The notes under the pieces are model-generated. The model worked only from the letters and a program-made list of their open reading frames with translations, was not told the origin of the DNA and did not search any database. From a virus (lineage: Duplodnaviria; Heunggongvirae; Uroviricota; Caudoviricetes), in IMG/VR virus record IMGVR_UViG_3300033233_000013, positions 50,857-114,856 of that record: a DNA stretch of 64,000 nucleotides; one strand, written 5' to 3'. Both the position numbers and the translations under genes were made by a program. This document shows, in pieces, positions 22,086 through 24,809 of the stretch (its first letter is position 1; every line of letters starts with the position of its first letter).

Positions 22086-24809
22086 CTACGCCGCCTTCAG
22101 GCAGCCGAGCTGTTGTTGGACGATGGGCGGGCACGGCGGCGGCTCGCCCTCGTCGCCGGCATCCAGCGCCGCGAAGTACCCGCTCATGGCGCGGAGGTAG
22201 GCGGCGAGCTCGGGCGGCGGCTCCTCGTGCGTCCGGTACGCCGCATCGTGCGCGTACTCCGTCCACTGGTTCTGGCGCGCGGTGCGGAGCTGGATCGTGA
22301 CCGCGACCCCGTCGACGTCGGCGACGCAGTCGATCCCGCGGTAGCCGAGCGGGCTCGGGCGCGCGACGCAGTCGAGGGTGGAGCGCACCTGGAACGTCCG
22401 TTGCAGCCGCGGCAGCGCCGCTTGCTCGTCCTCGATCGACTCAAGCGTGAGGCGCGCGGTCGCGAAGTCATCCATGCCCGCGATCGGTTCCTTGGCCTGC
22501 AGTTTCGGTGCGAGCGATGCCGATTCCTTCAGCCGCCCCGCGATCGGCACACCGGGAAACGTGGCCGCGAGCTGCTCGACGACCTTCGTGAGCGCCGGCA
22601 GATAGCGGGCGAGTTCCTTCGCGAGTGCGCCGTGGCTCACCGCATCAGCGCGCAGCGGCGACGTGTCCGCAGGCGTCCCCGGTGTCGGACCCTTGGCTCC
22701 TGGAAGCGTGAGACGCGGTCCGGCCGGTCGTGGCGCTGCTGGCGCGGCGGCCTTCAGCACGAGACGCCCCGCCTTCGCGAGCGTACCGCGCTCGACGACG
22801 TCGCCGCGGACGAACTGCCCCGCGGGACGACTCGCGAGCGCCTCGCGTTTAAAGTCCGTCCAAGAAAGCGCGTCGATCTGGTGGATAAACTTGGCGCCGC
22901 CGTTTGAATAGGCGCCGACGAATGCCGCCCGCGCGCTCGCGAGGTCGGGCCAGCCGATCAAGCACTTTTGCTCATCGATGTCGCGGAACTCGGGCGGCTT
23001 CCGCGTCGTGACGACGTAGACCGTCGTCGCCTCTACGGTGCCGGTCTCCGCGAGCGGGCCGAGGAAGCAATCGACATGGTCGCCGTCGCTCCCGACCGTG
23101 CCGCGCACGTAGCCGTAAGGATGCGACATGCGACTTGAGCCTTCGGTGCCGTCGTGGTCGGTCCAGTGGCGGAGGGAGCCGCGGCGGTTCTCGATCGAGA
23201 TCTGGAGCCCATCGAGCTCGCGCCGCCCGTGGAGCGCGCGCGCCTTCACGAGCGCCCCCTCCACCGCACGGAGGTCGTGCAGGAGCGCGCCGCGGCGACC
23301 AGCGAGGAATGCCTTCGCCATGACCGCGGCGTTGTCGTCGCGGTCGGCGAGCGCCGGTAAGTCTTCGTCGGCGATAAAAAATAGGTCCTTCTCGATCGCT
23401 GCCTTACGTGACGCGAGCGTCGCGATCGAATCCGGTGCCGGTTGCGGAGAAGGTGAGACGGCCGTATCATGGCCATCATGCGTCGCGCGCGTCGCTACCC
23501 CTTGTCGCCCTGCACGATCGGGCTTGGCATCCCGGACGACCCGCCCTATCGCCGCCTTCCGTACGGCGTCGTAGTTCCCATTGAGCACGCTGCGGTAACT
23601 GTCGGAGCCGACGAGCAGCGCATCCCAGAAGCGGATGCCGGCATGCTCGACAACGCGCGCCGTAAGGGTGACCCAGGCGGGGACGTCATTCTGCCAGGCC
23701 TCGCCATCCGCACCGCCCACGACGGCGACCGCCGCCGCTGACGAGGTGATCGCGAGCGCGAGGAGATGTGCCGTCGCCGTCTCGGTCGGCGTCGGCGCCG
23801 CCTCGCAATTCACGCCGAGCGCATGCATCGCCAAGATGCGCCCGCGCTGATCGACAAGCACGGCAAAGAGGGATCGAGACTCGGGGGCAAAGAGGCCACG
23901 GGTTGCGCGCTCGAGTTGTTCGGGCGAGGCGACCGACATGCCCCGGCCGATGAGGGTCGAACGAACGGCCTCGACCTCGCGCGGGTAGTGCGGGGCTGAT
24001 TCCACGTCGGGGTAGGGACGGACGCTGCGGCCACCGATCGGTGCCCAGCCCTCGCGGCCAACGACCAGGCCCTCGACCGTCATGCCGAGCGCCGCGGCGA
24101 CCAGGCGAGCGCCGTGGAGCGCCTGGTGATCCTCGGGACTTGGCGTCGGGTCCCCACTCGGGTGGTTGTGGAGGAGGTAGAGATGCGTCGCGCCGAGCGC
24201 GAGCGGGACCTTCATCATCTCCCGCGGCGCGGCGATCGTCGCCGTGAGGCTCCCGATGCTGGTCGCCTCGATCGTGAGGATGCGATGGTCGGCGTCGACG
24301 GCCACGACGTAATGGCGCTCGCGGTCGATGTCCGTGATCGCGCGGAATGCCGCGGCGACATCTTCGGGGCCATCCACACGGGCGGAGCGGAACGCGATCG
24401 CTTTCTGCCGGCGGAGCTCGATTGAGAGCGGCGCGTCGCCCCGAAACGTGAGCCGCCCCGCCGGACGGTCCCCATAGCGCCAGGTGCCCTTGCCGTCGTA
24501 GAAGCCGCGCCCGCCGCGAGTCCCCGGACGCTGCACCGGCTTGCGCTCGCCGAAGCGGAGCCCGAGCTGCTCGGCCTTCAGCACGAGCCGCCCGAACGCG
24601 CGCGCCGCCTTCGCGAAGAGCCCACCCGACCCATCGCACGTCCCACCGACCGGCTCCTCGTCGCCGCAGAGCGCGCAGCGCGGGTGGCCGTTCTTCGCCG
24701 TATAGACCGCCGGCCGGAAGCGATGCGGATGGCGCGCCTCGGGCGTCCGCTGCGCCGCACCGATGGCGCGATTCTCGCGTTCGAGGAGCGTGGGGGCGGG
24801 CATGGCCAT
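22086..24809 (-). CDS. Polyvalent protein (~907 aa): Zn-ribbon + RadC/JAB (MPN) domain + degenerate second JAB-like segment + family-I inorganic pyrophosphatase-like domain + C-terminal RelA/SpoT (RSH)-like nucleotidyltransferase domain
   Basis: Signatures read from the sequence: HPRCALCGDEEPVGGTCDGSGG (Zn ribbon); LYLLHNHPSGDPTPSPED (RadC JAB signature); HPYGYVRGTVGSDGDHVDCFLGP (PPase signature D-[SGDN]-D-x-[LIV]-D); LGYRGIDCVADVDGVAVTIQLRTARQNQWTEYAHD (RSH synthetase G-Y-R-G...EIQIRT...W-E..H pattern). Confidence 0.75.
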   Translation of the reverse strand: MAMPAPTLLERENRAIGAAQRTPEARHPHRFRPAVYTAKNGHPRCALCGDEEPVGGTCDGSGGLFAKAARAFGRLVLKAEQLGLRFGERKPVQRPGTRGGRGFYDGKGTWRYGDRPAGRLTFRGDAPLSIELRRQKAIAFRSARVDGPEDVAAAFRAITDIDRERHYVVAVDADHRILTIEATSIGSLTATIAAPREMMKVPLALGATHLYLLHNHPSGDPTPSPEDHQALHGARLVAAALGMTVEGLVVGREGWAPIGGRSVRPYPDVESAPHYPREVEAVRSTLIGRGMSVASPEQLERATRGLFAPESRSLFAVLVDQRGRILAMHALGVNCEAAPTPTETATAHLLALAITSSAAAVAVVGGADGEAWQNDVPAWVTLTARVVEHAGIRFWDALLVGSDSYRSVLNGNYDAVRKAAIGRVVRDAKPDRAGRQGVATRATHDGHDTAVSPSPQPAPDSIATLASRKAAIEKDLFFIADEDLPALADRDDNAAVMAKAFLAGRRGALLHDLRAVEGALVKARALHGRRELDGLQISIENRRGSLRHWTDHDGTEGSSRMSHPYGYVRGTVGSDGDHVDCFLGPLAETGTVEATTVYVVTTRKPPEFRDIDEQKCLIGWPDLASARAAFVGAYSNGGAKFIHQIDALSWTDFKREALASRPAGQFVRGDVVERGTLAKAGRLVLKAAAPAAPRPAGPRLTLPGAKGPTPGTPADTSPLRADAVSHGALAKELARYLPALTKVVEQLAATFPGVPIAGRLKESASLAPKLQAKEPIAGMDDFATARLTLESIEDEQAALPRLQRTFQVRSTLDCVARPSPLGYRGIDCVADVDGVAVTIQLRTARQNQWTEYAHDAAYRTHEEPPPELAAYLRAMSGYFAALDAGDEGEPPPCPPIVQQQLGCLKAA

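Follow-up and report, generated by a model that had tools for sequence, protein, structure and literature searches.

The gene and its modules

The 64,000-nucleotide stretch of DNA analysed here (the window; positions 50,857 to 114,856 of IMG/VR record IMGVR_UViG_3300033233_000013) is from an uncultured myovirus that is distantly related to Bordetella phage PHB04 (Phabquatrovirus). In its head-morphogenesis region, between the portal gene and the genes for the prohead protease and the major capsid protein (MCP), lies a minus-strand gene whose 907-residue product contains, from the N-terminus, an HCCC zinc knuckle, a junction motif, an active RadC/JAB domain with an inactive duplicate, a helical region leading into an InPase domain, a disordered linker that bears the second junction motif, a domain of the RelA/SpoT-like (RSH) fold and a Cys-containing tail (Table 1). 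The product is best explained as a phage-type polyvalent protein sensu Iyer et al. 2017, with separate effector modules strung in one polypeptide; a probability of about 0.7 is assigned to this explanation as a whole.

Three features place the protein in this class. It combines domains of disparate activity, with RadC, InPase and RelA_SpoT all scoring above their Pfam gathering thresholds, where two such domains would suffice. It is phage-encoded, with TerL, portal, MCP and tail sheath within the window and myoviruses as nearest relatives. Lastly, it shares domains with a network of variable architectures, including PF18823 (101 bits) and, in relatives, LPD3, methyltransferase and HExxH peptidase modules. 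RelA/SpoT, InPase and RadC are all catalogued components of phage and plasmid polyvalent proteins, which have been argued to be injected with the DNA, and MuF-RelA/SpoT and portal-InPase fusions have also been noted (Iyer et al. 2017; PMC5512222). The target resembles these proteins (Iyer, Burroughs, Anand, de Souza and Aravind 2017) in being multi-domain and encoded by a phage near head genes, and PF18823 was itself defined from them. A zincin-like metallopeptidase, frequent but not universal among polyvalent proteins, was not found in the target by Pfam, where RadC/JAB is the sole peptidase family; the relative P0002 differs in possessing an HExxH module.

Two independent public gene callers use the ATG at 24809 as the start codon, and residue numbering throughout refers to the resulting 907-residue protein; an alternative TTG start gives a longer version of 931 residues (22086-24881, minus strand). 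The identical protein is also encoded on a metagenomic contig of 117,568 bp (117.5 kb) and on a 20-kb Logan contig. An AlphaFold2 model of residues 450-907, built from 17 sequences, has a mean per-residue confidence (pLDDT) of 84 and comprises two long helices, a beta-barrel-like InPase, a disordered linker (residues 679-713, pLDDT <50) and an alpha/beta RSH domain; the model of residues 1-455 has a pLDDT of 69. NCBIfam agrees below threshold, with RadC and YjbM-type GTP diphosphokinase models. All motif strings quoted in an initial annotation of this open reading frame (ORF), made from the sequence without database searches, were located in the translation.

The N-terminal half consists of a zinc knuckle and two RadC-like domains. 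What had been annotated as a CxxC zinc ribbon is a conserved mini-domain of about 35 residues, in which all 15 sequences compared share H42, C45, C48 and C58, and which adjoins InPase in 14 polyvalent relatives as well. The RadC/JAB assignment was borne out by Pfam (RadC PF04002, residues 147-245, E 8.6e-21, 74.6 bits against a cutoff of 22.1), by the JAB motif HNHPSGDPTPSPED at residues 214-227, by the invariance of E181, H214, H216, S224 and D227 in the module alignment and by the structure model, which superimposes on 2QLC with a template-modelling (TM) score of 0.86 and a root-mean-square deviation of 1.6 A. Residues 255-450 had been considered as a new enzymatic domain and this was rejected, the region being a RadC duplicate without metal ligands: the two halves align by hhalign with 97.6% probability (E 3e-12, 116 columns) and show the same order of secondary structure elements (H-E-E-H-E-H-E-E). 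The tandem is kept in 13 relatives and is reminiscent of MPN+/MPN- pairs such as Rpn11-Rpn8.

The InPase domain matches Pfam InPase PF18823 at residues 527-655 (E 4.7e-29, 101.4 bits against a cutoff of 26.8) and contains the pyrophosphatase signature HPYGYVRGT...GSDGDHVDCF at residues 563-582. Residues E540, R547, Y565, D575, D577, D580, D612, E613, K615 and Y634 are kept and are invariant or nearly so across 137 InPase relatives. The initial annotation had assigned this segment to the family-I pyrophosphatases (PPases). This holds as far as PF18823 and its invariant residues, including the acidic cluster, are concerned; the canonical model PF00719 has no match in the target even at E<10, the sole tie to canonical PPases being a 30-residue match to 1ygz (E 0.47), and the relative P0014 reaches PF00719 at E 4e-4, which is under the cutoff.

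Among solved structures, the nearest to this domain forms the C-terminal part of a portal protein in a phage virion (9b41 gp19, E 4.5e-15), and the PHROGs matched by the InPase region are annotated as minor head protein, as virion structural protein and as DarB-like anti-restriction protein. Portal-InPase fusions (PDB 9b41 gp19; BcepF1.124 cited by Iyer 2017), which occur in Pseudomonas PB1-like and related phages, belong to the same virion-associated InPase clade and share the motifs SIENRxGSxR and YGYxxGTxGxDGDxVDxFxGP with the target. In these fusions InPase sits on the portal itself, whereas in the target it is part of a separate multi-effector protein and is followed by the RSH domain. 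InPase has been proposed to clear pyrophosphate (PPi) or to process a nucleotide-like substrate (Iyer et al. 2017; PMC5512222).

The RSH domain and its candidate partner

The RSH domain matches Pfam RelA_SpoT PF04607 at residues 758-862 (E 3.4e-9, 37.4 bits against a cutoff of 27), with all relatives scoring higher (42-77 bits) than the target's 37, and carries LGYRGIDCV...VAVTIQLRTARQNQWTEYAHD at residues 821-855. A Foldseek search with its model matched RelQ, RelP, CapRel and Rel (RelQ 5DED, E 1e-8, TM 0.65), and the family profile is far closer to RelQ, RelP and Rel (E ~2e-21) than to CapRel (3e-8) or FaRel2 (1.5e-5). RelQ and RelP small alarmone synthetases (SAS; PDB 5DEC, 5DED, 6EWZ) and the synthetase domains of long RSH proteins have the same fold (TM ~0.65) and share with the target RxKxxxSxxxK, the catalytic Asp, GYR, QxRT and WxExxHD. 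Kept in the target are R759, K761, S765, K769, D781, R786, Y823, R824, Q840, R842, T843, W849, H854 and D855. In alignments to RelQ, RelP, RelA and a Streptococcus SAS, R759, K761, S765 and K769 form the ATP-binding RxKxxxSxxxK and D781 is the catalytic Asp.

The same alignments place Thr838 at the position of the catalytic Glu, the target reading TIQLRT where the family has EIQxRT, and Asp827 (GYRGID) at that of the family's His in GYRSxH. D781 is the equivalent of RelSeq D264, and position 838 that of RelSeq E323 and RelP E174. Among the 18 RSH-bearing relatives recovered by exhaustive HMMER search, all keep the Glu and 16 keep the His, with Thr in the target alone. The domain thus has the fold and the ATP-binding residues of the RSH synthetase core that had been annotated, and lacks one of its two catalytic carboxylates, which in part bears out the absence of catalytic residues that the initial annotation had itself named as refuting its reading. 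The catalytic Glu is one of two Mg-coordinating catalytic residues of RSH synthetases (PMC7983052). The target further differs from RelQ and RelP in a shorter hairpin between the two strands concerned, in its setting within a 907-residue multi-domain protein and in its additional C-terminal Cys motif.

The altered configuration recurs in L007, a 1.1-kb contig from the independent run SRR26786857 that covers the C-terminal 97 residues of a close homologue, with the same GYRGID...VAVTIQLRT. Over these 97 codons, in one pairwise comparison, the rates of synonymous (dS) and nonsynonymous (dN) substitution are 0.48 and 0.05, giving a dN/dS of 0.11. The shared Thr and Asp, the synonymous change in the Thr codon and the low dN/dS together argue that the configuration is maintained by selection. 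An assembly or sequencing error at Thr838 was rejected, given that the codon is two base changes from any Glu codon, that two assemblies are identical and that the independent run has the synonymous codon. Decay of the domain as a pseudogene was likewise rejected on the basis of the dN/dS and of the integrity of every other nearly invariant family position.

DSSP assigns residues 826-832 and 835-843 of the model to strands, with a turn at D833-G834. From this hairpin register, Asp827 would lie on the strand neighbouring Thr838 and on the same face of the sheet, a placement that makes it conceivable that the carboxylate has been relocated from position 838 to Asp827. As it carries Thr838 and Asp827 and is nonetheless under purifying selection, the RSH domain of this lineage is taken to be a maintained, non-canonical variant. 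It appears somewhat more likely that canonical alarmone synthesis has been lost or strongly reduced, with ATP or nucleotide binding retained, than that full activity persists through a relocated carboxylate.

This RSH subfamily was not found in any cultured phage of the collection searched, tblastn with the RSH domain returning only Listeria fragments of 23% identity. A word-indexed search with the RSH profile returned distant stand-alone SAS proteins only.

Two small genes follow the target directly. The 271 nt after its stop codon could have been taken as intergenic, which was rejected since an 88-residue ORF lies there. The next gene, a 91-residue ORF, is homologous (E 4.5e-15 to 6.5e-9) to a domain of about 65 residues fused after the RSH in P0004, P0010 and P0137, and in L009 its homologue directly follows a canonical RSH gene and overlaps the RSH stop codon. 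This pattern of fusion or adjacency points to a dedicated partner, and the 91-residue protein is likely a cognate immunity or regulatory partner of the RSH domain. MuF-linked Apk2 domains have been shown experimentally to be (p)ppApp synthetases with downstream immunity genes (PMC12226406); MuF-Apk2/IapK and the fused antitoxin of CapRel serve as analogies only for the candidate partner. A word-indexed search with the partner profile returned small stand-alone proteins only, and neither Pfam nor PHROGs had a match for the small downstream ORFs or for eight upstream neighbours.

Relatives, junction motifs and genome context

An HMMER search of 1.84 billion representatives gave 19,157 matches at E<=1e-3, mostly to InPase, and domain architectures were mapped among the top 150, clustered at 50% identity. 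Among these, InPase-RSH fusions occur in at least 14 clusters and RadC-InPase fusions in at least 15, while the full RadC-InPase-RSH arrangement recurs in one other cluster only, P0002 (2354 residues). InPase precedes RSH in all relatives that have both. In contig L002 the RadC-InPase-RSH order forms the C-terminus of the 2354-residue protein, which also carries the HExxH module and an NPPF methyltransferase, and one relative carries LPD3. In the sister contig L003 the modules are divided between genes, in the order 553-residue RadC protein, 103-residue ORF, 487-residue InPase-RSH protein (P0005), 112-residue ORF, 1769-residue SNF2 giant, double-zinc-ribbon protein and MCP; identities to the window proteins are 38% for the RadC module, 50% for InPase-RSH, 54% for the SNF2 giant and 36% for MCP. 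Because RadC and InPase-RSH are split in this syntenic contig, the target unites in one gene what elsewhere is encoded by two. A word-indexed search for homologues of the full protein recovered nothing but that protein, and a single-protein scan of IMG/VR found no relative.

The initial annotation held that a fusion of this kind had not been described. The catalogue of Iyer et al. 2017, the work on MuF-Apk2 and the recurrence of InPase-RSH speak against this, and the architecture is rare rather than unique, combining in a new way modules that had been catalogued before. The text of Iyer 2017 makes no mention of the RadC-pseudoRadC tandem, the zinc knuckle, the junction motif or the small RSH partner; the target further differs from the proteins described there in the fusion of RadC with InPase in a phage, shared with the further clusters counted above, and in the absence of the metallopeptidase.

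The junctions between modules carry a recurrent motif. A hydrophobic-KA pattern ([RK]-hydrophobic x3-4-K-A), often followed by PGSRGG..Y....G..RYG, flanks modules of the target as two copies of GRLVLKA (residues 73-79 and 681-687). In relatives the motif pair immediately follows InPase, immediately precedes RadC modules and also stands at the very N-terminus of separately encoded proteins. In a six-frame scan of the window the hydrophobic-KA pattern had six matches, five of them in three adjacent minus-strand genes (the target and ORFs of 349 and 319 residues), and the RGG pattern was confined to the target and the 319-residue ORF. The internal copy in the 349-residue protein falls on a border between two segments, one homologous to what follows the RSH in P0046, the other with homologues in the C-terminal portions of P0013 and P0019, both RadC proteins (E 7e-45). 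The first of these segments (residues ~34-152) looks ParB/Srx-like by eye (IVNGSGAHAVAVRHGWATLPARIV), without a profile match. A neighbouring protein of 407 residues is homologous to N-terminal modules of InPase proteins. In relatives, RadC, RSH or InPase are the fusion partners of modules found in these neighbours, so that the block from ~22 to 32.6 kb is a pool of polyvalent modules in varied fusion states with the motif at module borders. The motif itself may serve as a signal for cleavage or packaging, or it may mark joints left by recombination.

Table 1. Coordinates of the polyvalent-protein gene, its modules and surrounding features in the window
Feature	Residues	Coordinates	Strand	Remarks
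Polyvalent protein, whole ORF	1-907	22086..24809	-	907 aa plus stop; 24809 is the in-frame ATG
Zinc-knuckle mini-domain	27-60	24630..24731	-	pH.F..A.WT..NGHPRC..CGDE....G.C; no Pfam match
Junction 1	62-116	24462..24626	-	GRLVLKA (aa 73-79), then PGTRGGRGFYDGKGTWRYGDRP 'RGG' motif; pair marks module starts in relatives and two neighbour genes
RadC/JAB domain	140-257	24039..24392	-	Metal site E181...H214-N-H216-P-S-G...S224..D227 intact
Degenerate second RadC-like domain	288-412	23574..23948	-	GGADGEAWQND in place of HNHPSGDPTPSPED; metal ligands all lost
Helical region ahead of InPase	459-524	23238..23435	-	Two long helices; kept in 7 relatives and PHROG 4660 'minor head protein'
InPase domain	526-660	22830..23234	-	Family-invariant residues all present
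Disordered linker with junction 2	676-713	22671..22784	-	LAKAGRLVLKAAAPAAP; pLDDT <50 for aa 679-713
RSH nucleotidyltransferase-fold domain	726-884	22158..22634	-	Pfam, alignments, structure model
Codon at catalytic Glu of E-[IVL]-Q-x-R-T	838	22296..22298	-	ACG (Thr); ACC (Thr) in relative L007
C-terminal motif P.CPP.V....GC	890-907 (C893, C903)	22089..22142	-	Closes most RSH modules of the subfamily in the alignment
88-aa ORF		21811..22077	-	Directly downstream of target; also in L006 and L007; no family match
91-aa ORF, candidate RSH partner		21539..21814	-	Two genes downstream; no known family matched
Giant protein, ~1800 aa		15790..21411	-	Downstream of target; C-terminal SNF2/DEAD helicase, long coiled-coil-rich N-terminal part
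HNH homing endonuclease, 165 aa		24981-25478	-	phrog_1872, E 2e-29; C-terminal helix-turn-helix region; directly upstream of target
349-aa neighbour		27479..28528	-	N-terminus MRLLLHPLRAIRLLLKAEPRAPGSRGGHGYY; internal RLVLKA at ~aa 181, exactly on module border
319-aa neighbour		28986..29945	-	N-terminus MRLILKA, contains PGSRGGVGYRTRSGKWRYG; motif scan
Hydrophobic-KA sites		24569-24589, 22745-22765, 27967-27987, 28474-28494, 29924-29944	-	Six-frame scan
Tail sheath		4952-6412	-	
Major capsid protein		11774-13303	-	
Portal		47849-49750	-	
TerL		51269-53392	-	
Helicase and N6/N4 DNA methylase, 1276 aa		55340-59170	-	DarB-like

The minus strand of the window reads, in order, helicase/methyltransferase, TerL, portal, beta-helix and other large proteins, the module block, HNH endonuclease, target, ORFs of 88, 91 and 129 residues, SNF2 giant, a protease-like ORF, a double-zinc-ribbon protein, MCP and tail sheath. 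The true start of the SNF2 giant is probably near 21100, as the GTG at 21411 overlaps the 129-residue ORF and the L003 homologue aligns from residue 117 only. This protein is syntenic with the 1769-residue giant of L003 and is the positional counterpart of the helicase gp025 of PHB04; the syntenic helicase giant of L002 (14422-21189, 2255 residues) contains a LAGLIDADG-domain intein. Positions 61537-63327 of the window hold a third helicase fragment. The HNH endonuclease, which one public gene caller does not call, suggests local mosaicism. No tRNAs were found in the window, and a search of genome contigs with the MCP, aimed at the host, gave a single irrelevant weak match.

The nearest cultured phages are Bordetella PHB04 and Pseudomonas Dolphis and Jeremy, with identities of 30-36% for MCP and TerL. 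Between portal and protease PHB04 encodes an HD hydrolase, a phosphatase, a 169-residue stand-alone InPase (gp028), a 2097-residue methyltransferase giant, an Ulx-like anti-restriction protein and a 1518-residue helicase. Its genes gp028 to gp025 (NC_047861) occupy the same syntenic slot between portal and head protease/MCP, with InPase followed by methyltransferase and helicase giants; unlike the fused InPase of the target, that of PHB04 stands alone, and RadC and RSH are not annotated there. That related phages keep DarB-like and anti-restriction giants in this slot agrees with the initial annotation of a polyvalent protein in the head region. Its description of the surroundings as a MuF-linked block was not borne out, no MuF domain being detected in the target or in ~40 other window ORFs scanned with Pfam and/or PHROGs.

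MuF polymorphic toxins with RelA_SpoT or Apk2 domains (Jamet et al. 2017, PMC5576092; PMC12226406) also combine a C-terminal RSH fold with a place in the head module and possibly a neutralizing small gene nearby. The target differs from them in having no MuF, in an RSH subfamily nearest to RelQ and RelP and in the missing catalytic Glu, and its phage resembles a large virulent-type myovirus, while MuF toxins belong to prophages of temperate siphoviruses.

Possible roles during infection

As a polyvalent protein, the product would be packaged in the capsid and enter the cell with the DNA, as its position and homologies suggest, and would probably be separated into modules at the hydrophobic-KA junctions. 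On this reading InPase and RadC are active modules: early in infection InPase would hydrolyse PPi or a nucleotide-linked diphosphate, and RadC would act on a nucleic-acid or nucleotide substrate. In the relatives with a full catalytic set, RSH would most likely serve as a 3'-pyrophosphokinase that perturbs host nucleotide or tRNA pools.

Several points weigh against this scheme. Packaging is deduced from position and homology; MuF (Pfam and PHROGs) and a processing metallopeptidase (Pfam) were not found in the target; and, unlike in PHB04, ~23 kb including beta-helix proteins separate the target from the portal. Rather than a site of cleavage, the junction motif may be an interaction peptide or mark a recombination joint. 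As to the RSH domain, the dN/dS comes from one pairwise comparison of only 97 codons, and the Thr838 variant may be fully active or fully inactive.

The initial annotation had proposed that the PPase could pull a pyrophosphoryl transfer forward or modify its product. A corresponding alternative, in which the virion delivers an alarmone or tRNA pyrophosphokinase of full activity, its reaction driven or modified by the fused PPase, to shut down the host, is considered unlikely. It would account for the RSH fold with all its ATP-binding residues and catalytic Asp781, for the purifying selection on the domain, for the constant position of InPase ahead of RSH in relatives and for the retention of a dedicated partner ORF, as expected of a still-toxic domain; Asp827, if on the adjacent strand and the same sheet face as the DSSP assignment implies, could supply the missing carboxylate. 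Against it stands the Thr of the target, at a position where all 18 relatives have Glu, as do RelQ, RelP, RelA and RelSeq. In the reaction of RSH synthetases (EC 2.7.6.5) a 3'-OH receives the beta-gamma pyrophosphate of ATP, and the products are AMP and a 3'-diphosphorylated acceptor, with no PPi. The coupling is unsound because AMP, not PPi, is released, so that a PPase has nothing to remove and cannot pull the reaction; action of InPase on the RSH product is possible but unsupported. In the model a disordered stretch of 35 residues, which contains the junction motif, links the two domains, and no interface between them is predicted (pTM 0.47). InPase is, moreover, promiscuous, being fused to many unrelated partners and stand-alone in PHB04.

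Equally doubtful is the alternative that the modules are not packaged at all, and are cytoplasmic early or middle enzymes of nucleotide metabolism or anti-defence that are merely encoded in the structural region. By Pfam, the target has no fused MuF, portal or capsid-decoration domain; the HNH homing endonuclease directly upstream marks the region as mosaic; the portal is distant; and the equivalent region of PHB04 also has an HD hydrolase and a phosphatase. Conversely, the gene shares orientation and block with the portal, protease and capsid genes, its InPase clade is physically part of the portal in a solved virion and matches virion and minor head PHROGs, and the adjoining DarB-like helicase/methyltransferase giants are of the classic packaged anti-restriction type (Iyer 2017, PMC5512222).

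An extended form of the polyvalent-protein reading has a lower probability still when its parts are taken jointly. Here, a conserved virion-delivered module of InPase, linker, RSH and partner, found in uncultured phages only, would use RSH to 3'-pyrophosphorylate a host nucleotide or tRNA and InPase to process the diphosphate product; for example, InPase could trim a 3'-PP, which is reversible, to a 3'-P beyond the reach of SAH-type hydrolases. In the lineage of the window the carboxylate would have been swapped between adjacent strands under continued selection, and the hydrophobic-KA/PGSRGG junction would be a capsid-targeting and cleavage signal analogous to the targeting sequence of T4 internal proteins.

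Least probable of all is a toxin-immunity cassette (toxSAS-like or abortive infection) for defence or superinfection exclusion, with RSH as toxin and InPase and/or the 91-residue protein as neutralizer: it is favoured by the small conserved partner domain fused or adjacent to RSH, which recalls MuF-Apk2/IapK and the fused CapRel antitoxin (PMC12226406), and by a weak PADLOC match to PDC-S33 (generic, and the only RSH match from PADLOC), but is opposed by a profile to which CapRel and FaRel2 are far more distant than RelQ, RelP and Rel, by the occurrence of RSH, which in toxSAS modules is a small stand-alone toxin, within multi-effector proteins of 500-2350 residues with methyltransferase, metallopeptidase and LPD3 in phage structural loci, by the missing catalytic Glu of the target copy and by the lack of any integrase or lysogeny genes seen in the window.

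Under the preferred reading of a phage-type polyvalent protein, the main value of the analysis is one of correction, in that a class of proteins described in 2017 was largely rediscovered and the PPase-RSH chemistry proposed for it does not fit what RSH synthetases release. The active/inactive RadC tandem extends the 2017 survey of phage-type polyvalent proteins, and InPase-RSH emerges as a recurrent pairing in uncultured phages. The junction motif common to neighbouring genes provides a testable handle on how such proteins may be packaged or cut. An RSH domain under purifying selection without its catalytic Glu would be either a pseudo-enzyme with a retained binding role or an enzyme with a re-wired active site; if the extended reading were true, the exchange of Glu838 for Thr and of His827 for Asp would give the RSH superfamily an active-site configuration, or a substrate, that is new to it.

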